The translations under genes were made by a program, and so were the position numbers. From assembly GCA_019973975.1 (NCBI GenBank), contig BMAO01019611.1, forward strand, positions 76,564 to 134,802: a DNA stretch of 58,239 nt, in the 5' to 3' direction. Under the pieces are notes generated by a model that saw only the letters and a program-made list of their open reading frames with translations, did not search any database and had not been told where the DNA came from. Positions 3,236-45,721 of the stretch are shown piece by piece (within the stretch, counting starts at the first letter, position 1; each line of letters opens with the position of its first letter). The stretch is from Trichonephila clavata (Eukaryota).

Positions 3236-4060
3236 ATGGATGAGAATAATGAAATGGCCGTCGCGAATTCGAACGAGCAAAAATTTGAAGCTAATAAGGT
3301 AAGCCTGAAAATTCCTCCTTTTTGGGAAGAAAAGCCTGAAATATGGTTTTTCCAAGTTGATGCTCAGTTTTCTATTGCTAATATAAATCAAGAAGAAACT
3401 AAATTTAATTACCTTGTAGCTAGCTCAATTAGATCCAAAATTTATAGAAATATATGGGATATAATTCAAAGCAATGAGAAGAATAAATATTCTTGTGCTA
3501 AAAATAGACTTTTGAGTGCTTTTAAAGAAAGTGAAGAAAAAGGCATTAAAAAATTGCTTACTGGAATTTCATTAGGGGACATGAAACCCAGTCAACTTTT
3601 GAGGAAAATGAAATCGTTGGCTGGAGATAGTATCACAGAAAAAGTTTTAAGGACTTTATGGCTAGATAAATTACCGGACTCCATCAAAAATATTTTAGTT
3701 GTTAGTTTGGAAAATTTAGAAAATTTGTCCGTTATGGCAGATAAAATTTTTGAAATAAATTCATCGCCAGAAATTTATTCTGCTACTGCAGATAATTCTG
3801 CTATGAAAAATATTCTTGAAAAAGTAAGCCTTTTGGAAAAACAGATTTCAGAATTATACATCAACAGAAGAAAATCAAGAAGCGAATTTAGAAATTCCAG
3901 TCAAACACGAAATAAAAGTCGAAGTCGATCTCGAAAACGCTTCGACCCCAAAGGAAAATATTGCTATTTTCACTTCCATTTCGGTGCGCGATGCAAATCT
4001 GAAAAATGCAGTCCGCCTTGTGCATGGAATAGAAATACGGAAAACTTCAGTCTGCAGTAA
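3236..4060 (+). CDS. Gag-like capsid/nucleocapsid protein of the LTR element. It has a basic RS/KR-rich tail and a Cys/His cluster.
   Basis: ATG at 3236, 23 nt after the PBS. The C-terminus reads RRKSRSEFRNSSQTRNKSRSRSRKRF…CYFHFHFGARCKSEKC. Confidence 0.65.
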   Translation: MDENNEMAVANSNEQKFEANKVSLKIPPFWEEKPEIWFFQVDAQFSIANINQEETKFNYLVASSIRSKIYRNIWDIIQSNEKNKYSCAKNRLLSAFKESEEKGIKKLLTGISLGDMKPSQLLRKMKSLAGDSITEKVLRTLWLDKLPDSIKNILVVSLENLENLSVMADKIFEINSSPEIYSATADNSAMKNILEKVSLLEKQISELYINRRKSRSEFRNSSQTRNKSRSRSRKRFDPKGKYCYFHFHFGARCKSEKCSPPCAWNRNTENFSLQ

Positions 4061-4140
4061 ATATTGCGACAAATTCTGCTGCAGAACATTAAAAAGCCTG
4101 TCGCAAATTTCGATTATTCGTTAAAGATCGAACGACAAAT

Positions 4141-4677
4141 TTGCACTTCCTGGTAGATAGTGGAGCTGATTGTTCAATAATACCAGCCACATCTAAAAAT
4201 AAACAATCATCTGATTATAAATTATTTGCAGCAAATGGGACAGAAATTCCAACCAATGGAATTAAAGTGCTAAAGATTGATTTGGGACTCCGCAGAGAAT
4301 TTTTATTTCCATTTATTATTGCAAGAGTTAGTAAAGGAATCTTGGGAGCTGATTTTCTACACAAATTTAATTTATTGATTGATATCAACAAAAGAAGATT
4401 AATTGATGGAATAACACAACTCAGTATTCCGGGTGAAATTTTCTCCATCACAAATGATCTTAATGTTACAACTTTAAATAAAGGTGAGAAATTTTCTAAT
4501 TTACTTTTACAATATTCTGAATTAACTAAGCCTAATATTCTACCTACTCAAGTGAAATACGATGTCAAACATTTAATAGAAACAAAAGGTCAACCAATTC
4601 ATTCTAAAGCACGACAACTTGATCCTAAACGTCTAGCAATAGCTAAGGAAGAATTTAAATTTATGCTTGATAATTAA
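4141..4677 (+). CDS. Retroviral-type aspartic protease (pol, -1 frame relative to gag)
   Basis: LVDSGAD active-site motif. There is no ATG, since the TTG 'start' is an ORF-finder artefact. It is expressed by frameshift or readthrough. Confidence 0.7.
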   Translation: MHFLVDSGADCSIIPATSKNKQSSDYKLFAANGTEIPTNGIKVLKIDLGLRREFLFPFIIARVSKGILGADFLHKFNLLIDINKRRLIDGITQLSIPGEIFSITNDLNVTTLNKGEKFSNLLLQYSELTKPNILPTQVKYDVKHLIETKGQPIHSKARQLDPKRLAIAKEEFKFMLDN

Positions 4678-4679
4678 GT

Positions 4680-5806
4680 TATTCGTCCATCTAGCTCACA
4701 ATGGGCGATTCCATTGCATCTTGTAACCAAGAAAGATGGAACATTCCGTCCATGTGGAGACTATAGACAACTTAATGCTCAAACATTTCCTGATAGATAC
4801 CCAATACCACGAATAGAAGATTTCCACCATATTTTAAAAAAACACTACAATATTTTCTAAGATAGATTTAATTAAAGCCTATTATCAAATACCTATCGCA
4901 GAAGAAGATAAATGCAAAACTGCAATTATAACACCTTTTGGTCTATACGAATTTAACGTAATGAGTGTTGGCTTAAAAAATGCTCCTGCCACATTCCAAA
5001 GATTCGTACATGAAGTTTTTAGAGGATTAGATTTTGCATTCCCTTATTTAGACGATATTCTTATTGTGTCAACTAATGAAATGCAACATGAAGATCATTT
5101 AAAAATAGTTTTTGAACATTTAAACACTTATGGATTAAAAATAAATATTTACCAATCTGTGTTTGGAGTTGAAGAAATTGAATTTCTAGAATATCTTATT
5201 TCGAAAGAAGGTTCTAAGCCTCTCCCAGAAAAAGTCAAAGCCATTACAAATTATAAAAAACCAGAAACTCTACATAATCTTCGTATTTTCCTCGAAATGA
5301 TAAATTTCTACAGAAGATACTTAAAAGATGCGGCGAAAAACCAAGCCTTATTACACGATTATTTAAAAGGAGCCAAAAAAAGAGACAAGAGAAAAATACA
5401 GTGGACAGAAGAAGCCGAAAAACAGTTCGAAAATTGTAAAAATGACTTGAGCAATACAGCACTGTTATCATTTCCAAATCCCGATTTACCTCTTGCATTA
5501 TTCACAGATGCTAGTGATACTGCTATAGGTTCAGTTCTACAACAATTTGAAAATGATACATGGAAGCCAATTGGATTTTATTCAAAAAAACTAAACCCTA
5601 CACAACAAAATTATAGCACATACGATCGTGAACTTCTAGGTATTTATCTTTCCATTAAATATTTTAAACATTTGCTAGAAGGAAGAAAATTTACAGTATA
5701 TACAGATCACAAGCCTTTAACCTACGCATTTTTACAAAAACCTGATAAAGCATCCCAAGGCAACTACGACAACTTCAATACATTTCTGAATTTACAACAA
5801 ATATAA
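4680..5806 (+). pseudogene. Reverse transcriptase + RNase H of the LTR element, with one frameshift near 4850-4960
   Basis: RT motifs [13 protein letters not shown]…[11 protein letters not shown]…[13 protein letters not shown] (frame 3), then FAFPYLDDILIVS (YLDD box) and TDASDTAIGSVL…YSTYDRELL (RNase H) in frame 2. A poly-A run at ~4838-4848 shifts the frame. Confidence 0.75.
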
Positions 5807-7202
5807 CTTATATTAAAGGAGAAGATAATATAGTTGCAGATGCATTTTCAAGAATCGAAACAGTTACAATAATCGACTATGATGCAATAGCAGATGAACA
5901 AATCCAAGATATAGAATTGCAACAGTTAATGAAGAGTAACTCTTCTATAAAATTCAAGTCATGCACATTACCATCAGGTAAAACACTCTGGTGTGATATT
6001 TCCACACCAATATAAGACCCTACATTCCAAAACAGTTTCAGCAACAAATATTTCAACAAATTCATGGTTTTTCACACCCTGGAATTAGATCAACTATTAA
6101 ACTAATGACTGAAAAATTTATCTGGCCAAATATGAAAAAAGAAATAAGATTATGGGCAAGAACATGTATTCCCTGTCAAAAATGTAAAGTCCACAGACAT
6201 ACTAAATCAAAATTTGGAGAATATGAAGTACCTGATGCTAGATTTAGTGTGATACACATTGATTTAATTGGTCCACTTCCACCATCGCAAGGCATGACAT
6301 TTTGTATGACCTGTATTGACCGTTTTTCGTGTTGGATGGAAGCAGTTCCCTTGCCTGATTGTAAAGCAGAGACAGCTAGCAAAGCCTTTTATGAACACTG
6401 GGTTTGCAGATTTGGAGTACCTGTGAAAATAATTACAGATCAAGGAAGGCAATTTGAATCCCAGTTGTTCAGAAGTTTAGCTGCTATTTGTGGAGCTAAA
6501 GTAGCTCATACAACTTCCTATCACCCTCAATGCAATGGGAAAGTGGAAAGGTTACATAGGACCTTAAAAGGGGCAATCAAAGCTCATAACAACATCAAAT
6601 GGACACAGACTTTACCAACGGTATTGTTAGGATTACGATCGGCTCTACGTGGTGACACAAATTACACCATTGCACAAATGGTTTATGGACAAACTATCCG
6701 ATTACCAGGAGAATTTTTCGAGAAACCGAAAAACATCTTGGATACAGATACGTTTGCGGAAGAATTACAGAAACAAATGGATCAGTTACAACCACTGAAA
6801 ACTCGCCGACAACCTTCTCAAAAACACTTTGTCCATAAAGACTTGCATACCAGTACACACGTGTTCATTCGCGTCGACAGAGTAAATAAACCACTTGAAA
6901 CTCCTTACGATGGACCGTTCCTAGTGGCTAAAAGATACGACAAATATTTTACTGTGACAATTAAAGGCAAGGACATCAATATATCTGTAGACAGATTAAA
7001 ACCTGCATATTTGTTGTTAACTGATGGTGATAATCCTGATCATCTCAAACAATCAGAACATGCACCAACCCTGCCCGACAAAAAACTGATTGTGCAGACA
7101 AAAATTGAAAAACAGCCACCAGATTTGCTGGAAAAAGGTGTCCAAAAAACAACTACACGCTCTGGTAGACACATAACGTTTCCATCCCGTTACAGAAATT
7201 AG
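5790..7202 (+). CDS. Integrase (HHCC zinc finger, DDE core, GPF module). The N-terminal linker TNITYIKGEDNIVADAFSR is in frame 3 before a stop/shift, and the ATG ORF is 6105-7202.
   Basis: HGFSHPG…H…CIPCQKCK (HHCC); IHIDLIGPL / ITDQGRQF (D,D); YDGPFLV (GPY/F-type motif typical of Ty3/gypsy IN). Confidence 0.8.
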
Positions 7203-7331
7203 TTGCATATTATTTTGTATGATTCTCATTTGTTGTATTTTTACCTTATTTGTATGTATTGCATGTCAATTTAAAATTTTACTACTTTTATTGCATATTG
7301 TATCGTAACTATGTTACTGGGGAAGGAGTAA

Positions 7332-7568
7332 TGTTGCATCTCTATTTATATATTATTTTTGTTTTTGTAACTTTAGTTCTTCTGATCTGGCAACAAAAGA
7401 GTTGTCAATATTGCGGCTGATGTAAGAACACGAATAAAAAGCCTACGATCGAGAATAGTTTTCTTCTGTTATTTTTAATCATTTTAAAGAGATTAATCAA
7501 TTCTAAAAAATATTTTTATTTATTCCATATATTATTCGCGACTAACTCATCTACAAACGTTTTGAATG
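7332..7568 (+). repeat. 3' LTR of the gypsy-like element
   Basis: Matches 2975-3208. It is preceded by a PPT-like GGGGAAGGAGTAA. Confidence 0.85.
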
Positions 7569-10500
7569 CAATGTAGAACACGTGTTTATATTATCATGTG
7601 ACCGTCATGAATTTAGTTCATTGCAATGGGTCGATTCATCACTAGAGGGCGCTGCGATCGTGGCCATCATCGCGTGATTAACAACGTGCGATCATGTAAA
7701 CAAATAACAGTTGATCGTATGACACTTGTGGTTGCGCGCTAACTTTCGAATTTTCAAACATTATTATTTTATATTCTTTAAATTCTTTTTAGTACTTTAA
7801 AATAGTTTTATAATAAATTTTCTACTTTTTTTAGTTTTTGTATTGTGACCAAATATATATATATAGTTTTAGTTTATAGTATTAGATTTAAGTGTTTAGT
7901 TTATACTTCTATCCTTTGGCTTCGAATTTTTGTATACTTTTAGGTTTAATAATTATTTTTTTATTAGTGCCAGCCATATTGTGATTAATAAATTATGCAA
8001 CGCTCTTTTGAACAAATTGCTTCTTGAAATTGGATAAATCTACTAATATCGCGAATCATTATGTAAGCGAGTTTTTCCGAGAAAAATTCGTGCAGACTGT
8101 AAATAGAAAGTAGCTCGCCAAAACAAAACATTGTTATGTCTTCTGTCAGCAAGAGCGATTAGTTAATACTTCGGCTGTTGAATAGGACCAAAGACTGTTA
8201 ATCAACTTATTATGATGATTGGATAATAGAGATTCCATGTAAATGTATAACCGTTACCTGAATACATTACTTATTTGTATTCCTAGACACTGTTAGTTGT
8301 GTCTGAGTGCTGTGAAGACCTCCTGGGATTTTGTGAATTCTAGCGTTGTGGCGTTTCTAAGGATTGTTTTAAGTTTTCATTGCTCCTGACCCATTCTTTG
8401 TAAGCGCAGGTATTTATTTCTTACCGAATTTGTGACATTGACTATATTTTTTTACATAGAAACTTCTTATAATTACAAAAAAGCTTGTGAATTTAACTGT
8501 TATTTTCTAATATTCATATAAAGTTTCCTTTTTGCTGTTCTTGAAAATTCATTTCGGTATTATTATTAGGACATCAAAGTTTTTAATGTTAATAATTCTT
8601 TTATTTTTTTAAAATTGTAAGGAAATATTTGTTTGCTTTACATCTATTGGACAATTTATATGCAATTCAATAACTCATTAGAAATAATTTGTAATAAAGA
8701 ATAATCCAATAAAATTTAATCATTATTCCTAAAAAAATTATGTATTAATATGATTCCTTTCTTTAACTTAATAGTGTAAGAGTATTTTCTTTTTTAAACT
8801 TTGAAGACAGTCTAAAGGGAAATTTCTAAAAGAAATTTCAAACCTTTGTAAATGATAATTACTAAGTAAAGTCAGACAATCAAAACTGGCAAATGTGTTA
8901 TTTCATTATAGATTCATCATATATTTCGAAAAATCTTACTATGTCTTGGGAATTTTTATAGAACAGTTGTTTAAAAAATTAATATACAATAACAATGTTT
9001 CAATTTTATGTATCCATATTAATGCAAATAAAGATTGAAACTGACAAAAAAAAATACTCTTTTGGAATACATCTTAAAAAAATACTCTTCATAAATACAT
9101 AATGAAGCAATGTCACTGATAGTCTTTCAAAAGAATATGAAAATGCATTTTTTAAATTACAATGGATTTCTTAATTAAAAAAAATAAAATTTTCACATGC
9201 TTCACTTGTATAAAATCATGTAATATTAAAATTAAATGTTGATAAATGATGCAAGTTAAATAATTTTAATTACTAATTTAAACTAGCTAACAAAAATTTT
9301 GTATGCTCCAAAATGTAAAAATTTTCATGAAAATAATTTAGCATGTTTCAAACAATTTCTAAAATTAATCCTATATTTTAGTATGATTCGTTTTTTTTTT
9401 TTTTCATGGGGACAATGATTTATATAAAAAAAATTCAAACATTTGTAGGTGATAATTCTAAATGTTATTATTTTACAACATATCTTTAAAGGCTTCATAA
9501 TGTATTGGTACAAATCATACTATTTTAAGGCCACACAATGTGCTAAACATTTCACAAACAATTTTGACATTTTCTTATGGCCAATATCATTGAGAAGCTT
9601 GCCACCAAATTTCAGATTTGATAATAAATTAGTTTTAAAGATATTTGAAGAGCTTAGGTTTTGGTTTCAGTTTCATTTTAAAGCAGTTTTCCACTTTTAA
9701 ATTGAATTAAAAATATTTTTGAGCCCAATCAACTCTTGCAGTGTGAAATGGTTAATTATTTCAGTTCTCATTACTAAAAGCATTTCTGCTTGATAATGTT
9801 TTGAGTTCTCATTGTTACTTAATTAAGATTGTTTTCAAGGCTAATTTTTGTTTTAAAAATAGTTTATATAACTTGAAAGCTTTATCATTAATTTTTTCTT
9901 GTTGGCCCAAACATTCTCAGGTTGCTGTGAGAAACAATATTTCGAAGAGATGGACACTACTGAAAAGGATGTATCTAAAAATCACCCTCAATTAATACTG
10001 CAATAAGACTTTTGAATTCAAGTATTGCAGATAAAACTGAATATTCCCATGATGTACTTAACTACATGATAATATATTGTCGTACTATATTTTAAAATTT
10101 ATTGCGTAATAAAGTTGTGCAATAAAACTCAAACTTGCTAAACTGTGCCCCAATTTAAAACTGATTTTTTTTTTTTTTTTTTACAAACCTGGTGATTTTT
10201 ATAGCTAAAGTTAGTATCATTATTTTATACATAAATACTTTGTATTTCAAACAGTGCTGGTTTAAGCTCATTTCAAGCACTGGGTACAGAAGATCCTCAA
10301 TTTTTAATAACAAATTCAATACTTTTTTAAACTTGCCTTTGTGTAAAATGCCTATAACATGTTGATCTACTTTTAAAAAATTATTATACAACATTAAAGG
10401 AATGTTTCATCAGAAAAGGTGCAAATATTTTAAAAAATTCAATTTAATTATCCTTAGTTTTAAATGTATTTTTCTACTTATTAAATTATATATAATTTAT

Positions 10501-12121
10501 AAAAATAGTATAATTTATCAATAAACAATAGATGGCTCCAAAATATAAGTTAAACTTGTAAAATAGAAATTAGCATATTGGATCGACTTAATATGAAAGT
10601 TTTTGAATAATAATAAATATTTATCCATGGTGAAAATGAATTTTATTTTTACAACACAATGAATTGTAAAAAAGAAAAAATTCAATACAATATATATAAA
10701 AATGAATAGTTGCATAAAATTTCCATTCACAATTTCTACTGGTTATGTATCTTGACCGGGTATTGTATGTGTAGTGCATGCAAACTAAAAACTTATTTGG
10801 AGAAATGTATTGACATTTCATTGTTATCACTAATATGTATCTAAAGTATCTTTTTATATATATTTATATTCACATTTTAAAAAAAATGGAAGATAAAAAA
10901 ACATCAGAGAGAGGGGAAAAAAGATACAAAATTCTCACTCTGAAGTTAAACGTGTGAAAATATATTATTAAAGATTAAAATCATTATTATACATCAAGTT
11001 ACTAAAGTTTATCATGAATAAATTGAGTTCCATTCTAATCAAAATCACAGTTTCTACTACTTATAAGCAATAACTAATTATAGCATTAGTTTACCAGGAA
11101 AATCCTAAATTTCAAGAAACTTTTCAGTTTCCTAAATTATACTTGAGCAAAATATTAAATTATTTCAAAGTTTGTCTAAGAAATGCTCAATCAGTACGCA
11201 TACCATTTAAAAACTTTGAACTTATGTATTAAACTGGCAAATAATTTTGCCAAGCCAAAACGCATCAAGAACTTTAAAAAGTATTATTATTACTACTGCG
11301 TTCATGAGCTATGATGCATATGAGCAGGAACAGTTCCAGTTATTGGCTGTACATTGCAACAACACCCCACAGAATCAAATGTCTATACATAAAGCCATAT
11401 TTGATTTCGTGATCCTAATTCTGAATAAATATACAATTGATGCAAGTACTCTTCTTGGGTCAATATTTGTAAGTAACTCAATGTAACAAATTTATTCAGG
11501 ACTTATAAGCAGGATAATATCAATATACATGTCTTTTAGACTTTTATATTTATGTAAAAATAAATCTAATGATATAAAGCAAATCTAATCTATAATGATA
11601 AATCTTCTACAAATTGTGCAAATACCTATAAATGCTTATTTGTAATACATAGTACAAAAATTTATACATCTCTGTGATTAGAGGCGGATTAAGCGGCTGG
11701 CGGCCGCCAGGGGCCCCGAGCACCAGCAGGGGCTCCAAGCTGATAGACTTCAGTTATAAGTTCAACGTGCAACAAAAAATCTTGTGATTGCAAATCCAAT
11801 GATTACCCACATTTGAATCGTATAACAATTAGTGTTGCCCTCATATATTACATGTAATTGCGGTTAAAAAAAAAAATCCGTCTTTTTTTTTTTTTTTTAA
11901 TATTTACCTAAACTTTGGTCTTTAATATATGTTTTCGGTTCCAAGTTTTTAAAAAGTTGATCCCAGATTTCTTTTTTCAATAATGATCCCAGATCTCAGA
12001 CTATAAAAAACTACCAATGTTTTTAGTTCTTTCGAAAGAATTTAGTATTTGAAGGTTCGTGATTTATTGTTATCTGGATTTCCGTGTTTATATTTTGAGA
12101 ATGTGGGGAAACAGATCGAAG

Positions 12122-12287
12122 CAGTGTCGGATTAAACGACATGGAGGCCCCTAGGCAGTCGAGTTCTCGGGGCCCTGTAGCCTGTTTTTGGAGCACTAAC
12201 AGAAAACAGAACATGCTTTTGTGGGCCCCTAAAAAGCACGGGGCCATAGGCAACTGCCTACTCCACCTAACGAGTAATCCGGCACTG
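12122..12287. mobile_element. 166-bp hAT-type MITE nested inside the hAT element. It has CAGTGTCGGATTA…TAATCCGGCACTG termini and a perfect 8-bp TSD GATCGAAG.
   Basis: GATCGAAG at 12114-12121 and 12288-12295. The termini are related to the host element TIR (…CGGATTAA…). Confidence 0.6.
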
Positions 12288-15200
12288 GATCGAAGTATTT
12301 TGTAAATTTAGTATCAGTTTTATTTCAGTCAGCATGACAGAAAAAGTGAAATATTTAAGGGAAATTGAAATTTCTCTAAATTGATGAATGAATCAAATAG
12401 TGAAATAGATGAAAGTTATTTTTTGGAAAAAACTGTAGAGGATCTTTGGCTATTGATATAATTGATCACAGGAATATTTGCATACTTTCATAAGGTATGA
12501 ATTTTGCTGGCATTTTTTACCATTGGTCAACTTAAATTTGATTAACTTTTAAAGTTAAAATTTCAGGTAATGTGCATCTTGTTCTTTAATTTTTTTATTG
12601 TTTTGGTTTCATAGGATCATTTTTACACCATTTGCTTTCATATGTTCGATTTTGTGTGTTTCTAGTTTGATAATGTTTTCCTTTTAGTATTTCTACATTT
12701 TAAATTTTTGTAATATAGAGAAAGGGAACTATGTACAGGGCCAGCCATGTTGGTGGTGTGGCGGATGCTGTGCGCAGGGGCCCCAGAATAATCAAAAACT
12801 AAAATGTACTCTTGCATATGAAAACTTGACAATATTCCTATCGTAAGAAATGTGAATTTTGTCGTAAACATTACTATTGTAGATCTCTGAAATTCAACAA
12901 TCTGCAAACTAATTCTTGAAATCATGCAGACTTTAACGTTTCGCACCATCACAGATGAAGCATATAATAAGAAAGGATTTTAAATTCTGAGAAACATTCC
13001 TGAACAACATTTCTTCTTATCAGGGGCGTAGCTATCACCGTATCAATGATACGGGCTCCCCTAGAGGCTCTGGACGTGTGTAAGCAAAAAGTCGTAAAAT
13101 ATTATCAATGGTCATATTAAGAGTTCCTTTTTACGTTTATAAAATAGTATGTCACTGGCATAAAACGATATAAGTTTTCGGTGTGAATTCTGAATCTCAG
13201 GAAACGCAATAAGAAAAGTTTAAAAGCTGGTAAAATTACTCAAAATAATGAGAAGACAAGGAGTGGTGTGATCTTTGAATGTAGGAAAAACTTCTCATTC
13301 AAAGTAGATCAACAGAAAGATCGTTTGAAGTGAAATACAGATAACACTTATTAGGATGGAAAAAATCCATTCTCAGAATGTCATTTGCCTGTAAATGACA
13401 ATAACCCTTTCGTCTATTGATTGATTGACTGTAATAAACGTCGCACTAAGAAGCTACAGGAATCCCTTAGTCGGAATTTTTTTCATAGATGGTCCAGTGA
13501 AGGAAAGTATTATATTATATTTATCCCGGTTCTCTTTTTTTTTTATTTCTGTAACAACTAAGAGACTGGATATGCATTCATGGTGAGCAAGGGCTGGATA
13601 ACTGCTTCCCGTTCCGATAAAAGATAGGACCATAAGCGCCTGAAGTCTTCTGTCACCCTCCAAGTCTATAGTTAATTATTTTTCAATTAGTATCAATGAG
13701 TTCTCAACGTTGGTTCTCTGGGGAGAGGGGGGAGAAGCGCGTTAAAGAAGAATTTCGGCACATTGGACAAAGCACGATCAAGATTTATGACTGGCTTAAG
13801 GACGAATGAAAAGAATGGGACAGAATGACCCTGAGAAAAAGACCCCTTTTCGAAGTAAACTGAGGAAATTTTGCATCAATTTGACTTCCGAACTAATTTC
13901 TTTTAGCTTCCTGCGCTTATACAGACAAATCGGAGAACCGTGTTTAAACAACAAAAAAAGGTAACTATATTTTCATTTTCAAATTCTCTTTTAGATTTTT
14001 AAGATTTAATGCGCAGGTATTTTAATCAGTGCGTAAGATAAAGTGAAAAAAATATTTTGTTGCATTTGTGTCATTACTATTTTATTTATTTATTTATTTT
14101 TCGATTTACATACATAAATATAAATAACTGCCATCAGTTTCTTAGAACATTTTTATGATTATTAATATATTTAAATGTGTTTTCGTAGCTTGAATCTTAA
14201 AACATTTTCGATTGGCATTGTTATTCAAATGAAAAAATATTATTTGCCTCTCTTATAAAAATAATTTCTTGAGTCAGTTATAAAAAGCGATAATAGTTCA
14301 TTTAAAATACAAAACATTAATGAGATTTTGAGTACATTCATTAATTATTTACCATACTTAAAAGAATCCTAACAATAACTCGAAATTGAAATAAAACGTT
14401 ATTATATTTATTGTGATTTTTTGTTTGTAATCCTAACGTATTACGATAATTTTGTTTAGTAATATATGAGCCAATCTATAATTTCTAAATATTTCATTAA
14501 AATTGTTTCAAACTGTTAAAAGAATTTTCAAAGAAAGAAAGTATATTAAGTTTACTTAAAAATACACTTTTCTTTCTTTTTATTGAGCGACGTGAAATAA
14601 ACACATAATTTTTCTAATATACTTTAAAACTGCTAAGAGAACCATTATTTTGTAAGATTAAATTTGAAAAGCATAAATTCTTTTTGTCTTTTTTGTATTT
14701 ATTGTCATTTTAAGAGTGATTTGCTCACGATACTTTTTTGATTAAGATCTTTTGTCCAGACAACTTGAAGGGATATTCAGTGCAATCTAATAATTAAATA
14801 TATGTGTATAACTAATTATAAAAATACATAAAAATCGTATAATTATTTTAAAATGCATAATTTCTTTAAAATATTGTATAACATTCTGTATGCTTCTAAT
14901 AAAGTTAATCAAAATTCTGATCTATAACTATATTTAAAATCTTTAAAAAAGGCAACAATGCCAATACTATAGCAGAAATTTCTTTAAAAAAGCATTTAAT
15001 GAAATGTTTATTTTTACAGAACAATTATAAATGTTGAAAAATATAGGTACTATATTTATAGGTAATTGCTCCTAGTTTAAAACTATTTAAAGTGGTTGCA
15101 AAATGTATTACAGAAATAAAAATATGATAAACTCAATTTATAAAGTAGATAAGAGAGAGAGAGAGAGTGATTTCAAACAAAATAGAAATGTGAAAAGTTA

Positions 15201-15873
15201 TTCAATATGTTGTAAGATTGCTTAATTTTGAGAAATGGAACTTTGAATGTAGATATAAATTTACTTGAAAAATTGTAGATTTCTTTTGTGATATTGTGGC
15301 ATTTGTGTATGTCAAACAGTTTTGAGTTATCTCAGAAATTTCAAGTTATTTTGGAAATGTTTTATTGTTCTGTTTAGTCACAAAGTATTAAGATTTTTGA
15401 AAAAACAAACAAGTATAGTAATAATACTAAACTAGAATGTGTAAAAAATATTTGTATTCAGTTAATGTTTTATTAACTTATATTTGGAAACTTTAAAAGG
15501 AAACTTTACAAATCAAGAGTATTATAATTGTTTTTCCAGTTTTTAAAAGAAAACCTTAGAATTTTGGAATGCTTACTTTTGGTTGAGACATTTTAATAAT
15601 TTTGATTATAAGTAATCCGGAAGCTAAGCTATGTTTTGTTCTAGAAATTAAACTATGATTTCTGTAAAGAATAAAAAAATTAAACAAAATATGTGTGTAT
15701 TAAATCGGAAATTTCATACTTCTATCACACAGAAAATTTGAAAATAGATAAAATGTAATTTTATGAGAGTTTGGGGGGGGGGGGATTTAATGCTCTTTAG
15801 AAATTTTAGCTAAATTTGGACTGGATATTAAAAATTGCAGAGGGGGGGGGCAATCATTTGATAATGCTCTAAT

Positions 15874-17300
15874 ATGTCCGGGCGGTACTCAGATCTACAG
15901 GCACGTATTAAAGAACACAGTTCAAGCGCAGTTTATATTCCTTGTGACAGTCGTTCTTTAAATTTAGTAGGAAATTTAGCAGCAGAAAGTTGTAGCGATG
16001 CAATTAAATGTGTTTTATGCTTGTACACACAGAAATTATTCTATTTTTTTCTGTGTCAATCCATCGCTTGCGAATTTTAAATAAAAATCTGGAAAGAAGT
16101 AAACATGCAATATCTGTGAAAAAAATTTCAGATACACGATAGTCAGCAAGAGCAGATGCCGTACGAGCTATAAGACTTGGTTATACACACATAAAAGAGG
16201 TCTTGGCTGAAATCCGTGATACAAATGAGGAGATCACAATACTGGAGACAACTTCTCTTTTGATACATGGTAGAATGGTCATTGGGGCACATGATCTCTG
16301 ATGAGGTCTTCATCCCCTATCTTGAATTTGAGGGAGCATTAAAAATTACACTTGCCATGTTTAGTGGAAGGTGGGGAAAAGTATGAAAAGTTTAAAAGTT
16401 AAAAATTTAAAAATAAAATTAAAATTAAGAAAGTATATTAGATTGCGACCTGAAATAATAATAATATAAGGAAAAATTTCTGGAGCTATTTTTGTTTGCG
16501 TTGGGGTGTTTGGTAAAAGAGTGGAATACTGAGTCGACCGCGGCTAACTCCGTTGCCGGAGGCTAGCTTACGGCCAACTTAATCATTGGGTACTTTTGAA
16601 ACACATGGAAAAGTATGAAACTTCCCTAATGACCGTGATTTGGGATACCATACTCCAGAGGGTGAGTGCTACTAGCAAAGCATTACAATCAGTTGGGTGT
16701 GAGCTATTAAAAGGATCTAATCTACTGAAATATTTAGAAAATTATATACAAAATTTCAGAAATGAATTTGGAAAAGTAGAATAAGAAGCAACTGCTTTAC
16801 AGGACTCTCATTTGAAAAGGAAGTTGGACAAGCTTGCAGGCAGCGAAAGAGAAAAAATATTTTCGGTGAAACTAAAGAAGGTCATGAATTTGAAAATAGG
16901 AAAAATTTCTTGTTCAACTCATTCTATGTCATATGCTATAGGACAAGTGCTGAACTATCCCGAAGAGCTGGAACTTATAAAACTGTTATAGAATACTTTT
17001 TTGTATTTTTTGAAGAAAGGTTTTCTGAAATTAGCAAGAAAGCTGTACAAAAATTAAAGGATATTTACAAAGACGATATTGAATCGCTTAATTTTGACGA
17101 TGAATTGGATCAGTTTTTGCTATTTTTAAAAGAAAACAAAGATACTATGAACACTCCAATAGAAATTTATTGAGTTGCAAAAGAAATGGTCTCGACTTTC
17201 CCTAATGTCGATATACTTTTTAAAATATTTTTAACTATACCGATATCAAATACATCTAGTGAGAGATCTTTTTCGGTTTTAAAGCGCGTTAAAAATTATT
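15874..17300 (+). pseudogene. Decayed hAT transposase (ZMYM1-like / DUF4371 + hAT C-terminal dimerisation domain), fragmented over three frames
   Basis: MSGRYSDLQARIKEHSSSAVYIPCDSRSLNLVGNLAAESC (DUF4371 C-end). …ARAIRLGYTHIKEVLAEIRD…. …FPNVDILFKIFLTIPISNTSSERSFSVLKRVKNYLRSS (hAT dimerisation). The N-terminal half is missing. Confidence 0.7.
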
Positions 17301-19079
17301 TAAGAAGTAGTACAGCATGTACTGAAGTACAGAAGTACTGAACAGCATGGCCATTTTATACATAGAACAAGGTGTTTTGGACCAAATAGATACTGCAAAA
17401 ATAATCGATGAATTTGCCCAAGAAAAATCAAGACGTAAAGCTATATAGCAAAATTTTAAACTTTTAAGTTAGGTGTTTTCTTTTTAATTCTTTAAAATAA
17501 AGTTAAAAGTTTTTTTTGAGCCGTTAATTTTTTTTTAGTTATACATTTTATTTTGAGAATTTAAGGTCAGCGAATTTTTTTGACTCTTCAGCCCAGGGGG
17601 CCCCAAACCTTTTACCGCCAGGGGCCTCCAACTAGCTTAATCCGCCTCTGTCTGTGATAGGTTTATACCACAGTTAAACTCTGAAAAACAAATGTTCTGT
17701 AATAGATACCACACAAATATATTACAATTATTTATTTGTAAAAGAATTATGCCTCTTTAAAATGCCTTTTTTTAAAATTTTGATCATGTAAGAGTGAGCA
17801 GGACTTTTATATTCCATAAATGGGCATAAACAAATTCTACTATACACAGATTTTAATTAAAAATTTTAATACCTTAATTTATAATCACATATTTGGAATT
17901 CAATTCTCGATAAATCATATCTTTTACCTAAAATAGCGCAGGGAGTAGGCTTTCAAAATGTTGCATAATTTTTTTACATGTAATTTTACATATGTTAAAT
18001 GATAATTTTGACTTCTAATGCTAAAAAATGGTACTTGATTCATCATCAAGTGTAAACATTAATGAAGCTGTAGTAAATTAAAATATTTTTCCATTTTTAT
18101 AGTGAATGCTTCTTGAAAATGTTTTTTCTTTTTCCCTGTAATATTCTAAAATTATTAAGTAAAACAAATTTTTGATTTATATGTATGTATACTTGTTTTT
18201 GATACGACATATATGGTTACATATCAGATTTTTGCGTCCTAATTTTTTAGATAATTAAATACTGAAGTACCTCTCCTTAATTTCTGTGAAGATGTGTAAA
18301 ATAAGTAAAATTTAGATTAACCAAACATATGTTCTATTGTTTATGTGTTGGACATACCTGTCCTTAATTTTACCAAAAACATATCAATGGGTTGCAAAAT
18401 ATTATTTTGGGTGGACATTAAGGTATTTTCAATATTTAAAACATTGAATACACTAAAAAAATCTCTTGCAATGAAACCCTCTGTTAAAGTTTTCATATGC
18501 AAATCACTTACTGTTATTTGCAATGAATTTATTTTTCTGTATAATATCCTTCTGCTTCTATTTTGTTTTGTAAAAGGCAAGCTTATCCAGGAAGGAATGG
18601 AAAAAGCTGGCTAACGTAACGTTCGCTTTTCCTGTATTAAAAGAATTTTTAAAATTTTTTTACATAATTATGCATGTATATGTAACTACTCATTAATTTT
18701 AAGCTTATAAGGACGTAAAATAAAAATTACATGAAATTTAAAATGTAGTATAGTAAAATTGATAAGTAGAAATTTTCTTTTATCATAACTGTTTTTTTAA
18801 TATTGGGAAAAGTTAATGCAATCAGTGTTTTAAGAATATAGATAGATACTTGCTTCTCAATTTCTATATGATCACGCTCAGTACTGAACTGATTTATTCC
18901 CTGATTTCTGAAAAAATAATGAAATATGAATCCCACAAATTATTAAAATATATTGTACGTTCTTCACTATAAAGCATTATACATTTATGGATGCATATTT
19001 TTTAAAGTACATATGAACTTTGTTCATTTACTTGTATTTGTAAGTGTATTGTTCTGAAAATTACAAAGCAATGACTTTT

Positions 19080-19819: not shown

Positions 19820-20210
19820 AAGTAAAAAACTTTTTTAAAAACAAGCTTTTATTTAAAAGCGCTAAAAAGAATAAAATAAACTTTTCCTTTAAAACTTTTT
19901 TTACTATCAACTTATAACGTCATTACACAATTTATATGATATAAAAGCTTGTCGCGAGGTTTATCTGTGTAAATAAACAAGTAAAATAAATAACTTGACC
20001 TGACTGATTTTAATTTTTTAAAATTCAAACTAAGTAAATACGAGTACTTAAATCTCGTGTGACAAGCTTTTATATCATATAAATTGTGTAACGACGTTAT
20101 AAGTTGATAGTAAAAAAAGTTTTAAAGGAAAAGTTTATTTTATTCTTTTTAGCGCTTTTAAATAAAAGCTTGTTTTTAAAAAAGTTTTTTTACTTTTTAG
20201 TTATCGCTGG
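19820..20210. repeat. Large near-perfect inverted repeat (hairpin/foldback). Arms are ~19820-19953 and ~20061-20210, with a ~107-bp spacer.
   Basis: Arm 1 …CTTTTATTTAAAAGCGCTAAAAAGAATAAAATAAACTTTTCC…ATATGATATAAAAGCTTGTC is the exact reverse complement of arm 2 GACAAGCTTTTATATCATAT…GCGCTTTTAAATAAAAGC…. Confidence 0.85.
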
Positions 20211-26099: not shown

Positions 26100-28111
26100 T
26101 CTGCATACATGTTAATGTTAGTAAGGGAGTAATTAGGGATGTCATTAATGTATAAGTTAAACAGCAGGAGGCCTAAGAGTGATCCTTGAGGACACCCTGC
26201 GGAGATATTATGAGAATTTGAAAGAGTTTCATTGATTCGGATTTTAAAGGAGCGGTTAATAAGATAGAAGTGAATTAGATGAATGAAGGGGGGGGGGAGA
26301 TCATATGTTTATAGCTTTAATGTGAGACCAAAAATCCAAAAATGGTCGAACGCTTTCTGTATATCCAGAAAAACGACTCCCGTGCTTTTCTCTTTCTGGA
26401 AACCTTCAGAAATATTTACGGTTAGTCGAAGGAGGGGGTGTAGAGTAGAGAGTTAGTTAGTAAATCCATATTGGTTAGGGTTAAGAAGGTTTTTATCATT
26501 GATGAAGGTTTTAAGTCTATTAAGGATGATGGATTCGGTTAGTTTGCTTAGAGTGGAGAGGAGAGAGATTGGTTTATAACTATCAGGAAGATTAGCATTT
26601 TTACCGGATTTATGAATTGGAAAAATTGCTTCTTTCCAATTATTTGGAAAGTGATTAAGTTTTAGTATTTTATTCATTAGAATGGTTAGGATTAGGATAA
26701 GTTTAAAAGGAAAGTATTTAAGCATTTTATTGGTGATTCCGTTCTTGCCGGGGGCTTTTTTGGAGTTAACACGTTTAATATAATCAATAATTTCGTCCGG
26801 CAAAGCGGGCTCTGGGTGGAAGGGGGGGGGAGGAAGTTAATTACAGTAGTGATAATCTCATCATCGTTGTTGTTAAAGTCATCATTAGTATGGTTATTTT
26901 CAACAAAGTTATTTTTAATGGTTTTAGCAAGTAGATTAGCTTTTTGCAGATCAGTGACGACCATTCCCGATAAGCAGTTAAGAAGTGGCATTTTGTGACG
27001 TTTGTTTTTTAGAAATCTCTGCGCCTCTGGGAGGCGAAGAGATTTCTTCTAATTTAAGGGCTTCTAATTTTTTATTCCAGGTTTCGTTACTGTAATTTTT
27101 AGGCTCTTTTTTAAAGATTACTTTGTGCTCTGTTGTAGTAAGTTTTAAAAATTGGATTAAGAGTTTGATGGTATTGCTTGCGAAACTTATTTTTCTGTTT
27201 GATTAGATTTATGATGTGCGGTGGTGTAAAGTTCCGACGGTTGTTTCCTATTGGCTGGGAGGCGTGGCTATGCGAGTCGAGGATCGCCTCGGTGAATCCT
27301 GTGATTTTTATTTCAAGATCGTTAGTAGTATTAATATTATTAGGGTAGAAATTGAAAAGAGAAGTTTCTATTTAGGTTGTTTCTGAAATCGTTCCAATTA
27401 GTATGCACAGCTCTTGGGTTTGGGGGTCCGGTTTGAAGTCTGAAGTTAAAAGTTAGAAATACAGGATTATGATCAGAAGAGAGGTCATGCAAAGATTTGA
27501 TTGTGAAGGGGTAGTAGGAATTTCTGATTAGAGCGAAGTCAATGGTGTTAGCAGTTATGGCCAATACTAGTGGGAGAGTCAGAAAAAGCAATATTGAGAT
27601 TTAAAATTTTGGCAAAGTTAAACAGACGAATACCTCTACTAGAATTTATTCTACAGCGCCAGGCACTGTGGGTGGCATTAAACTCGTCGAAGACGACGCA
27701 GTTGCTGCTGGTTTGAATCAGATTTTCAAGGTCAATAGAAAAAGTGTATTTGTCAGATGAAGGGGAAACATAAATGAAAACAATAGAGATAGGATCATGG
27801 TTAGGGGTGTTAGGATAATATTAGTAGCTTTACAGCTTGTAGAGGGGAGAGGAGAGACAGTAATGTTTGAGAGAATTTTTAACGAAAATCAGAGTTCCAC
27901 CGGAGGCCTGTCCGTCTGTGATCCGATCATTTCTGTAGCAACAGTAGTTGGCAATGTTAAAGTTATTAGCTGGTCTCAAGTGGGTTTCTTGAATAAGAAA
28001 TAGGTTGGGGGAGTGTTTCTCTATGAAAATTCGCAATTCAACATTGCATCTTAGCAGACCGTTTGCGATCCATGAACACAAACTGAGACCTACGGGGGGT
28101 TGTCTATGCAT
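26100..28111 (-). pseudogene. LINE ORF2 fragment: AP-endonuclease domain plus N-terminal half of reverse transcriptase
   Basis: APE motifs in 27340-27591 and 27830-28111. RT motifs in 26453-26803 and 26130-26330. The frame changes at ~26800, and the sequence terminates after YADD (~26130). Confidence 0.75.
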
Positions 28112-28488
28112 TATTATTATTGGCAGGAGGCCTCTATTAAGGCGTACATTTGATTAGGATTATTGTTTACACTTTGAACCTGATTATAATTGTTCATTAA
28201 GTTTGGGGTTGTACACATTGCCTGGGTGAACTGTGAAAGTTGCATTAAGCAATTCATAGTCATTTGTAGCATATCTTGTAGATTAAACTTAGTTCCATTG
28301 TTATTAAAGTTATTATTAAAGTTATTTCCAGGCATGTTATAATTTGGAATATTCATATTGTTGGGGGAAAGGTATTTCCTGGTCTCAGTTTGTGCAAAAA
28401 AATCCAGATTTTGGTGGCGCCATCTGTTGTTTATTTTTTGAATTAGAAGTTCCGGCAGCTGCTTGAGCGTAGGAGATGTTGGGGCGAA

Positions 28489-29796
28489 TTAGGTTATTGT
28501 AAATGTTAGTATAAGAATTTCTATTATTTTAGCGGCGCCCTTAGGGGGCTTGGGGAAGCAGGGGCAACCTTTCCAGTTGGCTATATGGCCGTAGATTTGA
28601 CAATTAATACAGTAAGGGGTCTCTAGCCGTTGTTTAATGGGGCAATCTCTGGTAATGTGATCATCGCCACATTTTAAGCAACGAGGGGTCATATGGCAGT
28701 TTTCTGCGCTGTGGGAGGAAGGTATTACATGTGTAAAATTGTGTTACACCTCTTCCATCGTAACCTTCTACCCTGACGCGGAAGTAGTTAAGATTTTTCA
28801 GATCAAATATTTTAGCATTGGTGAAGTTTCTGGGGAGAGTTATCAAGAACACTGGTAAAGCTTAGTTGGTCCTACGACCTATGAGCCTGGTTGACCTTTT
28901 CAGGTGTGAAACCAAGTTCTTTCAGGTCAGCTTTAATTTCTACAGGCTTCGTTACTTTGGGTAGACCTTTGATTACTACTTTAATGGGCCGTTCGCTTTT
29001 GGGTTTAATCACAACAAATTGATATTTAAGATTTTCTAAGAGTTTAAGTAAGTCGCGGTGCTGATCAAAATCGTCAGCATAGAGTTTAAGAAGATCGCCT
29101 GTTAGGCGCATTCTGAGCTTGGGGTAGTGGGCTGTTAAAGTTTTTACAGGACTCCTGTAGGTGTCAGTAATTTTAAGCATTACAGGAGGGGGCAGTGTGT
29201 TCGCGGATAGAGTTACCTTCGGGACCGATGCGGTGGCGTCGTCGGGAATCTAGGGGCGTTAGACTTAGGTGCTTAAGAATCTGGATTTTCTTGAGAGCAA
29301 TTGGCGAGAGCCGAATATCTATTCGGAGAAAGCTGTACTGCAAAAGCAGAAAGTTGATTGAAGAGACTTCTTTTTCTTGTTTTCCTAGGGAGTTCAAATT
29401 CATTAACGTTAACGTTTAGAGTTGTTTCTTGGATTAATTTTACTAGGAGAAACTGCAGGCGAGTTTTTTGGGGTAGAAATTGGAAGTTTTAGCAGGGGCT
29501 AGGTCTTGAAAAGGGAAGCCAGGCGTAGTACAAACAGGGACGGAGTCAAAATCACTCACCGCTATTGTCAGGGAGTTTTCAATGTTCTGGAGTTCATCCA
29601 TAGCATTCTGGTAAGAGTGATCATTTTCATGGTCAGGGTAGGACTTCAGATCTTCGACGATAGCTAGCTTGTGCTTCTTGATGCGCTGCATTCGCTCCAG
29701 TTGAGTCTTTGCGTAGGCTTGTTGCTCGTATAGGGATCGTTGAAGAGGAGTGGTTGGTGATTGTTCCATGTCCGAGAAATCAGGTTGAGAGGCCAT
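28489..29796 (-). pseudogene. LINE ORF1 (nucleic-acid-binding protein with a CCHC zinc knuckle), split over three ORFs
   Basis: Minus-strand ORFs 29443-29796, 28872-29180 and 28489-28692. CCHC: C-X2-C-X4-H-X4-C twice in MTPRCLKCGDDHITRDCPIKQRLETPYCINCQIYGHIANWKGC. Confidence 0.65.
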
Positions 29797-30469: not shown

Positions 30470-30472
30470 TTG

Positions 30473-30500
<28 letters not shown>
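30470..30500. repeat. (TA)n microsatellite
   Basis: tatatatatatatatatatatata read directly. Confidence 0.95.
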
Positions 30501-30505
<5 letters not shown>

Positions 30506-32647
30506 TCAAGAGCCAAAACATTATGACCACCCCTACATTTTGCAATGAACTCGCCTGGATGACGTGGAAGGCACGCGATCAGGTGGAAGTGGTATTTAAC
30601 TGCTGCTGGAGAGTCTGAAGAATCATTCTTTCACTTACTTATGTGTGTGACGGGAAAGGCTGCGGATCTAAGCGACTTTGATAGAGGGCAGATTGTGTAA
30701 TGGCTCGGAACAAGTATTTCCGAAACTGCACGACTCATGGGTTGTTCGCGATCTGCACTTGTTAGTACAATAGAAGTCCGATAATCCGGCACGTTCGGGA
30801 CCGGCTCGGTGCCGGACTACCGAAAATTCCGGTCTATCGGGCGGTAATTATAAGAACAATTAGGTTAATAATTAAACTACAAATACAGTATGCAAATACA
30901 TACAACAAAGTTTATTTTACATTTCATATAATATATGTACACGTACTGTTTCATCAGCATTGTAAATCTGTTCAGGTGTTAAATCATTATCAGCCACGAT
31001 TTTCTCAAACTCGTCTTTGTATTTTTCTGCAGAGTTTGGTTTGCTGAAAGTGCTTCTCCAGTTACATCAAGTCTTCGAATTCCATGCCGAAACTTAAAGT
31101 TTCTGAGCCAACCATCAGAATAATTACATTCACTTTCAGCCAACTCCTAAATCTTGGCGGAATTTCTTTGCCTTTTCAACAATCATTGGCCCTGTTACCA
31201 ACTTTCCTTCAGAACGTAATGCACTAAACCATTTGAACAATACACTATCTACCTGTTCCAGTTTTGGTTTTTTTAATGTTTGTCTAGAAGCCAATTTTTC
31301 AGTTGTTACCGATTGAGAAGCAAACTTCATTAGTTCATCTTTTTGTTTTTTAATGTCATAAATAGTTGATGAGCCAATATTAAACTTATCCATTAAAACA
31401 TTTCAATTCTCGCCTTTTTCTAGCCGTTTGATGATTTCTAGTTTCTGATTGAGAGTCAGTGTTACGTGTTTTCGTTTCTCTCCTTTTGAACTCGAAGGCT
31501 TAGGTTTTGAAAACATGGTCACTGTACAGTTAGAACGAAAATCACTTTTTTTATAAACAGTTTCAAAAGTTACGTTTACTGCGATGTGAAAGGACACAAA
31601 ACAACAACGCACAAAAAAATGGCGAAGACGCTTCGTGATTGATTAACGGAGCTGCACTGCACATGAATTTGTTGTGACAGCTGAGACTAGCCGGCCGATA
31701 ATTGTTTCCGAACACTACCGAGCGCTTCCGGATGATCCCGAACTACCCCGAAAACTTCCGAGTAGCTCTCGAGCGTTTTTATTTGCTTTAAAGACACACT
31801 TTTGGAGAAAACCAAAATTTTTACAATTTTCCGGAGCGATGCCGGACTATCGGGCATTCCGGACTGTTGGATGCCGGACTAATGGGCTTCTACTGTACTT
31901 ATGCAAAGTGGATGAATGACGGTGAAGCCAGCAGTAGACGACATGGTGTTGGACGTCCACACGCTATCAAAGAAAAAGGTCGCCTGAGACTGTCTCGCAT
32001 GGTGAAGCAAAACCGGAGCCAGACAGTGGCTCAGTGGGAGAGAGTTGCCTGGTCAGATGAATCACGGTTTGTCATTCATCACGCCGATGGATACGCCGTC
32101 TTCCAGGCGAACAGTTGCTCCCTCAATATACAGTAGGTCATACACAGGCCGGTGGTGGAGGTATTATGCTTTGGAGGACGTTCTCTTGGGCGTCTCAAGA
32201 ACCCGTGGTTGTGGTAGAGCAGATCATGAATGCTACAGGGTATTTGAACATTATTGCGGACCAGTTGCACCCTTACATGGCCTTTTTTTCCAGCTGGAAA
32301 TGGAATCTTCCAACTGGACAACACCCCGTGTCACAAGGCTAAAATTGTGTTGGAGGGGGTTCCAGGAACATGATGCTGAATTCCAGTTAATGTCCTGGCC
32401 GCCTATCTCACCAGATCTCAATCCGATTGAACACATTCGGGATGTCATGGGACGGCAGCTCAGAGTTCAAAGACCACCAATTCACAGTATCTCGGATTTG
32501 CATGACCGTTGTTTAAACATCTGGTACAATCTGCCTCCGGCCATCTACCAAGGACTTGTGATATCCATGCCAAGGCGGGTTGAAGCTATGTTGCGCGCCA
32601 ACTCGTTATTGACAGGTGTTCATAATGTTTTGGCTCTTGAGTGTATA
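30499..32647 (+). mobile_element. Tc1-like DNA transposon with 33-bp terminal inverted repeats, a decayed transposase and a nested insertion
   Basis: TIRs TACACACTCAAGAGCCAAAACATTATGACCACC (30499-30532) and GGTGTTCATAATGTTTTGGCTCTTGAGTGTATA (32615-32647). Transposase pieces: KAADLSDFDRGQIV (HTH, 30650-30780), YAKWMNDGEASSRRHGVGRP…WSDESRF (31890-32100), GGGIMLW…, QLDNTPCHKAK, WPPISPDLNPIEHIRDV…(32045-32662). The left end lies in a (TA)n tract. Confidence 0.8.
30784..31879 (-). mobile_element. pogo/Tigger-like non-autonomous element (deletion derivative retaining only the N-terminal CENP-B/psq-type HTH region) inserted into the Tc1 element at a TA
   Basis: TA at 30782-83 and 31880-81 flank ATCCGGCAC… / …GTGCCGGAC-like inverted termini. 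The ends carry repeated GCCGGACTA(T/C)CG motifs. Minus-strand ORFs 31403-31612 (…KGEKRKHVTLTLNQKLEIIKRLEKGEN) and 31136-31393 (MDKFNIGSSTIYDIKKQKDELMKF…) are typical of the pogo transposase N-terminus. There is no DDE domain. Confidence 0.6.
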
Positions 32648-39860: not shown

Positions 39861-40189
39861 ATCTTAAAGTATTACGAATAAAAACATACTTAAAGTCTAA
39901 TTTGAGTAAAGAGGACGATGCATTGTCAGTATTATATAGACTATAACGCTAAGGAAACACTTAATACTGATACTATCATATATCAGTTTGCCAATATTAA
40001 GTCACAAAAGGAGTATCGTAATTTTTGTTGTGTTATATGTTATATCTTAGAATGTATATGTTTTTAATTTTACCCTTTTATGTTATATTTTAAAAAATGT
40101 TTCTATTTTAAATATTATTCAAGAAAAATACTTTTATTTTTATATGTATTTTCAGAATAAAAAATTAAATATTAATTTATATTTCATTT

Positions 40190-45587: not shown

Positions 45588-45694
45588 ATGCAGTGGTGTA
45601 ACAGAGAATATTAGGGCCCCCTGCAAAGTCAGGTTTTGGGCCAATCTAGAACCCTGGCCTCCCCCATGATGTGGGGCTATACGTTACACCACTG
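45588..45694. mobile_element. 107-bp MITE-like element with perfect 12-bp TIRs CAGTGGTGTAAC…GTTACACCACTG and an internal GGGCCCCC palindrome. It belongs to the same GGGCCCC-rich family as the 12122-12287 MITE, and degenerate relatives lie at 13023-13075 and 12730-12790.
   Basis: TIRs read directly. No TSD was recognisable. Confidence 0.45.
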
Positions 45695-45721
45695 GTGTCC
45701 AGCATCCTGTAGCCCTGTGTA

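Follow-up and report, generated by a model that had tools for sequence, protein, structure and literature searches.

A probable dead, internally deleted copy of a multi-copy nephilid hAT transposon family in Trichonephila clavata

The 5,972-bp element at positions 11679-17650 (plus strand) of a 58,239-nucleotide stretch of Trichonephila clavata DNA (contig BMAO01019611.1; the whole stretch is called the window below) is, with high probability, an ordinary, dead and internally deleted non-autonomous copy of a multi-copy hAT transposon family of nephilid spiders. A first-pass annotation of this DNA had recognised a hAT element with complete ends and a perfect 8-bp target-site duplication (TSD), and this part of it holds: both the terminal inverted repeats (TIRs) and the TSD are read directly from the sequence. 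The left TIR (TAGAGGCGGATTAAGC, 16 bp, 11679-11694, plus strand) and the right TIR (CAGAGGCGGATTAAGC, 17635-17650, minus strand; read on the plus strand as its reverse complement, GCTTAATCCGCCTCTG) agree at 15 of their 16 bases, with base 1 (T versus C) as the sole mismatch, and the element is flanked by two identical (8/8) copies of TCTGTGAT, at 11671-11678 and 17651-17658. No further perfect match (0 mismatches) of the TIR 16-mer occurs in the 58-kb window. Just beyond the two TCTGTGAT copies the flanking sequences show no relation, which rules out a longer local duplication ending in the 8-bp repeat, a possibility that the annotation had raised against its own interpretation. The flanks of the element gave no useful match with the Nephila pilipes loci described below, hence no paralogous empty site is present there.

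Homologous elements were found in all six N. pilipes loci compared (L001-L006), which lie on six different contigs of assembly GCA_019974015.1 and were reached through N. pilipes gene models. L002 (9567-17154, 7,588 bp) has the TIR CAGAGGCGGATTAAG at both ends and the TSD AGTGTATT (8/8), L005 (5566-12817, 7,252 bp) has the TSD GAGAAGGC (8/8), and L004 (11288-16950, 5,663 bp) has an internal deletion unlike that of the window copy and a TSD that agrees at 6 of 8 positions; L001, L003 and L006 are partial or interrupted copies. The left terminus reads TAGAGGC in L005, as in the window, and CAGAGGC in L002 and L004. The termini of the window element, which the annotation had feared might not be shared by other copies, recur at both ends of L002, L004 and L005, at the right end of L001 and L003, and in a more distant relative, L007. 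The TSDs of the copies (AGTGTATT, GAGAAGGC and TGCACGAA/ATCACGAA) all differ from TCTGTGAT; shared ends at unrelated loci with differing, independent TSDs are the mark of transposition, not of duplication. With an 8-bp TSD, short YAG TIRs, a hAT C-terminal dimerisation domain and many copies carrying independent TSDs, the elements are, as judged from their sequences, a genuine multi-copy hAT family of nephilid spiders.

Some details of the N. pilipes loci are recorded here in their own right. The gene model P0071 runs through the right terminus of the element (..SLIRLW). L001 holds, at 3855-8936, an insert of ~5 kb within which lies part of a second copy of this transposase region. L002 holds, at 10193-10479, a 286-bp repeat that recurs in many copies across the N. 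pilipes loci; the window has a single copy of the repeat, at 1711-1928.

A majority consensus of 7,388 bp was built from the seven copies (six from N. pilipes plus the one in the window). It contains two abutting open reading frames (ORFs) that, once a single frameshift is corrected, encode one protein of 846 aa. The Pfam matches in this protein are DUF4371 (residues 267-444, E=7.9e-27) and Dimer_Tnp_hAT (residues 743-822, E=1.1e-11). A C-x2-C...H-x5-H motif near residue 200, seen by eye, is consistent with the name 'TTF-type domain' that NCBI gives to T. clavata fragments of the protein. Upstream of the ATG the consensus has ~4.5 kb with no ORF of more than 105 aa. Judged from this consensus, the full-length form would be ~7.4 kb long and consist of the TIR YAGAGGCGGATTAAGC, a ~4.5-kb 5' region, a single-exon 846-aa gene and a 3' subterminal region of ~200 bp. 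A sequence search of the PDB with the consensus transposase gave no match.

The window element is collinear with L002 (9567-17154) and differs from it in three respects: a ~1.75-kb deletion and a private 325-bp insertion in the window copy, and the 286-bp insertion private to L002. Protein likeness is confined to 15797-17448 (plus strand), where tblastn and Pfam identify a transposase remnant corresponding to consensus residues 414-846. The frame is interrupted by stop codons, and the translation used was a pseudo-protein stitched by hand across frames; it matches proteins with DUF4371 and hAT dimerisation domains (best E=2e-177), bearing database names such as 'zinc finger MYM-type protein 1-like' and '52 kDa repressor of the inhibitor of the protein kinase-like', and its closest named relatives are N. 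pilipes gene models at 79-87% identity. In the remnant itself Pfam finds only the hAT C-terminal dimerisation domain (PF05699, E=4.5e-11, 42.8 bits against a cut-off of 21.4), and the N-terminal part of the RNase-H-like core is missing. The annotation had described the C-terminal ~40% of an internally gutted transposase; it is indeed the C-terminal part alone that is left, although this amounts to 51% of the protein (residues 414-846 of 846), and the 5' half of the gene is indeed missing, which makes the copy non-autonomous, but the loss consists of one ~1.75-kb deletion only.

This deletion removed sequence upstream of the ATG together with codons 1-413. Its left breakpoint lies after 15774 (...GAGAGTTTGG) and homology is back at 15797 (TTAGAAATTTTAGC...); the ~1.75 kb of family sequence is replaced by a 22-nt junction, GGGGGGGGGGATTTAATGCTCT (15775-15796, plus strand), with the overall pattern ...GAGAGTTTGG-Gn-ATTTAATGCTCTTTAGAAATTTTAGC...; the 22 nt are loosely like the sequence 3' of the left breakpoint in the other copies. 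The two sides of the deletion have in common the microhomology TTAG/TAAG. In L001, L002, L004 and L005 the sequence crosses both breakpoints and the segment between them is intact, and L006 begins within the deleted interval and carries its 3' part; the deletion is absent from all six N. pilipes copies and is thus private to the window copy among the seven compared. Relative to the consensus, the remnant has 4.6% substitutions, 3 in-frame stops and several frameshifting indels, and the CxxH motif has changed from CASH (...IPCASHSLNL... in the consensus) to CDSR (CDSRSLNL). In place of an uninterrupted full-length ORF, the window copy thus has a gene that lacks codons 1-413 and is broken by the 3 stops, the frameshifts and the 325-bp insertion, and it is unable to make a transposase.

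The ~4.1 kb upstream of the junction (11695-15774, plus strand) are homologous to L001, L002, L004 and L005 with ~91-92% substitution identity, and their GC content (~22-36%) is that of the window background. The annotation had counted 4.2 kb of AT-rich non-coding DNA as a sign of gutting. The segment is non-coding, as stated, but it is the family's own 5' region and not debris: it is shared, at about 91-92%, by copies of 7.3-7.6 kb that have the whole transposase region, and in L002, L004 and L005 it is bounded by the left TIR, hence it belongs to the element. A second gene or a captured host exon in this 4.1 kb was considered and rejected: the ORFs of the consensus in this region are at most 105 aa long, and the sampled loci have no repeat of the segment elsewhere. 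Within the 5' region a private 26-bp tandem duplication (11946-11997, plus strand) adds 24 bases (11969-11992) in alignment columns occupied only by the window copy. At the other end, the remnant is followed by a 3' untranslated and subterminal region (17449-17634, plus strand) recognised in the sequence by its CCAGGGGCC motifs. Subterminal motifs of the form CAGGGGCY lie in the 5' region at 11708 and 11727; the window has 5 occurrences of this motif where 0.62 would be expected, 4 of the occurrences lying within the element and 3 at no more than ~60 bp from its ends. Both subterminal regions are kept in the window copy.

Constraint on the ends is suggested by L007, a relative at 69% aa identity from a 'symbiont metagenome' assembly in ENA (ERZ941003; SRR1777404, PRJNA271702). 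The end of L007 (...TACCGCCAGGGGCCTCCAATCGGCTTAATCCGCCTCTG) and the final 41 nt of the window element are 93% identical, whereas the coding DNA of the two is only 78-80% identical; this difference suggests constraint on the terminal sequence, which may well contain transposase-binding sites. L007 carries an uninterrupted 547-aa ORF (161-2057) and may represent a still-intact sister family; its contig is short, with Nextera adapter sequence at its ends, and a literature search on PRJNA271702 brought up no paper.

The history of the copy can be pictured as follows. hAT transposases bind TIRs and subterminal motifs, excise the element and integrate it with an 8-bp stagger. We propose that such a transposase bound the TIRs and subterminal motifs of this element, excised it and pasted it into TCTGTGAT, the 8-bp staggered cut giving rise to the duplication. 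The loss of ~1.75 kb would have occurred by interrupted gap repair or end-joining, in the way that Ds arises from Ac, as the microhomology at the junction suggests. Interrupted gap repair after excision is the classical source of deletions with microhomology or filler, both in the passage from Ac to Ds and in P elements, and by it a deleted copy is rebuilt in place, its TSD unchanged; a private deletion of this kind therefore needs no movement of the deleted form. Since the deletion is private among the seven copies, it most likely arose at this insertion or after it and did not found a mobilised subfamily, although an origin before the insertion would also fit the data. The view of the element as a mobilised deleted derivative is thus not upheld, there being no evidence that the deleted form ever moved. 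Neutral decay then added the ~5% substitutions, the 3 stops, several frameshifts, the 26-bp duplication and, as a secondary insertion, the 325-bp repeat.

The annotation had further proposed that the element was mobilised recently and that an autonomous partner should exist in the genome. In its strongest form, this would make the window copy a Ds-like non-autonomous derivative that an autonomous copy, still active in this genome, had recently moved in trans. The TSD (8/8), the TIRs (15/16) and the retention of both subterminal regions are what such a history would leave, and the ends are intact enough that the copy could in principle be moved by a transposase supplied in trans. Longer copies do exist in T. 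clavata: the gene models P0125, P0130 and P0134, on three different contigs, correspond to residues 45-241, 228-412 and 236-406 of the consensus with 92-95% aa identity, and so cover the part that is deleted in the window copy, though none is longer than 224 aa. The open 547-aa ORF of the related family in another sample may also be counted in favour. The partner has thus existed historically; in the present genome, no intact one was found. Protein searches covering 5.8 billion proteins returned no intact full-length transposase of the family, the close matches all being fragments of at most 354 aa and the best long matches being at most 69% identical, and in L002, the one near-full-length copy that was inspected, the transposase region is broken into several ORFs; even in the seven-copy consensus one frameshift has to be corrected. 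The window does contain a second hAT pseudogene of DUF4371 type, at 38234-40016 (plus strand), which belongs to a different family from the 5,972-bp element; it was considered as the autonomous partner and rejected, its protein identity being ~40% and its own sequence being broken into many frames.

The divergence of the copy likewise argues against a recent move. In substitution-only comparisons, the window copy is 91-92% identical to the N. pilipes copies (88.8% to the partial L006), and the N. pilipes copies are mostly 92-94% identical to one another (down to 89.9% in pairs with L006). The window copy has diverged from the consensus by 4.6-5.0% and the N. pilipes copies by 2.9-4.7%, so that it looks as old as they do, and the near-identity to the consensus or to other copies that is expected of a recent insertion is not seen. 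Neighbour-joining on 1.3 kb of 3' sequence, with L007 as the root and 300 bootstrap replicates, gave a star-like tree with branches of equal length, that of T. clavata being no shorter than the others; the N. pilipes copies are monophyletic in 232 of the 300 replicates. The perfect TSD is no evidence of youth, for by our own calculation the probability that all 16 TSD bases remain unchanged at ~5% divergence is about 0.95^16 = 0.44, and perfect TSDs are also found in L002 and L005. The T at base 1 of the left TIR is common to L005, which makes it a family variant that is silent on age. Taken with the private 325-bp insertion and 26-bp duplication, the 3 stops and frameshifts and a deletion found in none of the six other copies, these results do not bear out the proposal of recent mobilisation, and we consider recent mobilisation in trans by an active copy unlikely.

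Several points nevertheless weigh against our reading of the element as an ordinary dead copy. The consensus is dominated by N. pilipes copies, and a divergence of 5% from it may make the window copy look older than a comparison with its own source would. Whether the deletion is private, how many copies T. clavata has and whether any is active are all judged from the N. pilipes copies and from annotated protein fragments. Lastly, two runs of G lie near the junction (15773-15784, 12 nt, and 15842-15850, 9 nt) where the relatives have A9 and G3, and errors of assembly or polishing may have altered the precise sequence of the junction.

The same G-runs, both within 80 bp of the junction, could be taken to mean that the internal deletion is itself artefactual, a full-length element at this locus having lost ~1.75 kb when the assembly collapsed or was mis-joined at a homopolymer-rich spot; G/C runs of at least 8 nt are indeed over-frequent, with 9 in 58 kb at ~30% GC. 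However, the sequence is continuous and free of Ns, homology returns cleanly and in frame on both sides with the short microhomology that is typical of real deletions, and L004, with its different and clean internal deletion, implies that such derivatives are normal for the family. An artefact of this kind is accordingly very improbable. Other G/C homopolymers of 8-12 nt are seen at 26288, 26822, 43955, 45120 and 48971 of the window, and the N. pilipes assembly has like runs; they are possibly base-calling or polishing artefacts in both assemblies.

That the TIRs and the TSD resemble an insertion only by chance, or stem from a segmental duplication in the region and from no transposon insertion, has in its favour only the general AT-richness of the region and the frequency of TCTGTGAT in the window (6 occurrences against 1.7 expected), and can be dismissed on the mutually unrelated outer flanks, on the same termini bounding homologous elements with different TSDs at unrelated loci of another genus, and on a scan of the whole 58-kb window for TIRs (at least 12 of 13 matching) with perfect 8-bp flanking repeats within 10 kb, which found 3 such structures against a mean of 0.07 (never more than 1) in 100 dinucleotide-preserving shuffles. 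The 5,972-bp element is one of the three; the others are a 166-bp miniature inverted-repeat transposable element (MITE) nested within it and a palindromic element of 333 bp (19841-20173) that is unrelated.

The nested MITE, of hAT type, occupies 12122-12287 (plus strand), with the TIRs CAGTGTCGGATTA and CAGTGCCGGATTA (12/13) and the TSD GATCGAAG (8/8) at 12114-12121 and 12288-12295. It is found at the same site in L001, L002, L004 and L005 with 91-94% identity, which implies that it was inserted before the family amplified and was part of the master copy. Its TIR agrees with that of the host element at 13 of 16 positions, and together with subterminal sequence the likeness extends over 31 nt at 81%. 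The N. pilipes gene model P0053 begins with an ORF derived from the MITE (MEAPRQSSS...). The private 325-bp insertion (16268-16592) is an interspersed repeat that is absent from the site in L001, L002 and L003. It is flanked by 11-bp direct repeats, CTTTTGATACA (16257-16267) and CTTTTGAAACA (16593-16603), which are identical at 10 of 11 positions (consensus CTTTTGAWACA), and one partial second copy of it lies at 37309-37361. The insertion has no TIRs and no poly-A, and no tRNA or Rfam match; it could be a short interspersed nuclear element or a fragment of a long interspersed nuclear element (LINE).

The similarity of the family across the two genera raises a further question. In the tree of the 3' region, pairwise distances are 7.4-8.5% between genera versus 6.0-7.8% within N. 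pilipes, a very short internal branch separates the species, and the ~4-kb non-coding sequence is equally similar. Kuntner et al. (PMC6568015) give an age of ~60 Ma (36-88) for the Trichonephila crown and of ~133 Ma for Nephilidae, and after such times neutral DNA should be far more diverged than is seen here. A second DNA transposon behaves alike: a Tc1/mariner-like element (DDE_3 match) at 30470-32662 of the window is 89-97% identical to one at 14807-17931 of N. pilipes L005, at least as close as the hAT copies of the two genera are. Retroelement fragments common to both genomes are only 65-73% identical, and horizontal transfer of DNA transposons would produce a contrast of this kind. It is conceivable, though we would put it at somewhat below an even chance, that the presence of the family in the two genera goes back not to common descent but to horizontal transfer, either from Trichonephila to Nephila or the reverse, or into both from elsewhere; slow neutral rates or over-old dates could also give the low distance between the genera. 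As a neutral benchmark, the C2H2 zinc-finger genes of the window were searched, with generic zinc-finger matches and no N. pilipes orthologue as the result. The N. pilipes Gemin2/SIP1 gene that lies beside L002 clusters at 90% identity with no Trichonephila protein, a weak result, as this single-exon gene is present in two copies and may be a retrocopy.

The rest of the window is dense in transposon remains. Apart from those already mentioned, they include a long terminal repeat retroelement with long open gag-like (DUF7041), reverse transcriptase/RNase H and integrase ORFs (3236-7202, plus strand), a LINE with endonuclease and reverse transcriptase fragments (26453-29796, minus strand), a fragment of a Mutator-like element (MULE) transposase (54474-55080, plus strand) and a further integrase-bearing retroelement (56431-58202, minus strand). 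The 333-bp element at 19841-20173 is self-complementary throughout (80%) and has perfect 13-bp TIRs, ACAAGCTTTTATT, with TTTTAAAA on both sides; it is a foldback or MITE-like insertion, although the TSD is of low complexity and the 8-bp duplication correspondingly less secure. Exact matches to the T. clavata proteins GFR31637.1 and GFR31640.1, both on one contig of 134,802 bp, are given by two short ORFs in the window. The only candidate host genes are at 40709-48786 (minus strand), where at least four ORFs encode C2H2 zinc-finger arrays with the common N-terminus MAFSLYDNSRCH; their best spider matches, from T. clavipes, are only 58-69% identical.

This work defines the ends, the ~7.4-kb structure and the 846-aa consensus transposase of a nephilid hAT family. 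Several 'genes' annotated in N. pilipes and T. clavata are in fact pieces of the transposon or of the MITE nested in it, among them models named as dimer_Tnp_hAT domain-containing, TTF-type domain-containing and uncharacterised proteins (e.g. NPIL_502171). The result is of use for repeat masking and for the cleaning of spider gene sets and has little importance beyond annotation; the wider question that it touches is the horizontal movement of DNA transposons between co-occurring orb-weaver genera.

A literature search found no published description of this particular family, and we regard it as an apparently undescribed family of a known hAT kind, whose unusual length is a curiosity and does not make it a new type of element. 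hAT elements are 2.5-5 kb long, with TIRs of 10-25 bp and TSDs of 8 bp, and BuT2, a member of the Tip group, carries DUF4371 and hATC (Rossato et al. 2014, PMC3942097). Because BuT2 likewise combines these two domains, the Tip group (Tip100, BuT2, hAT-4_BM) is the likeliest home of the nephilid family, by analogy. The family shares with the DUF4371 hATs the 8-bp TSD, the short YAG TIRs, the combination of DUF4371 with an hATC dimerisation domain, the deletion derivatives, the MITE-like relatives and the many copies with independent TSDs. Unlike typical hAT elements (2.5-5 kb), it reaches ~7.4 kb owing to its ~4.5-kb non-coding 5' region, and unlike BuT2, whose gene has five exons, its gene is a single exon. 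Target sites reportedly follow the consensus nTnnnnAn for Ac and nnnTAnnn for Buster; the six TSDs seen here fit neither of them. The comparison with maize Ac/Ds extends to the internal deletion in the transposase gene, to the retention of TIRs and subterminal cis regions, and to the microhomology or filler at the junction that is expected of interrupted gap repair; it ends with the hAT lineage and the host, which are others, with the deleted form, which gives no sign of having been mobilised or amplified, and with the active equivalent of Ac, of which none was found. Domesticated hAT genes such as ZMYM1, THAP12/P52rIPK and ZBED resemble the transposase remnant in sequence, but the window feature differs from them in having TIRs and a TSD, in being multi-copy and in being pseudogenised, all of which mark it as a transposon copy and not as a domesticated gene.

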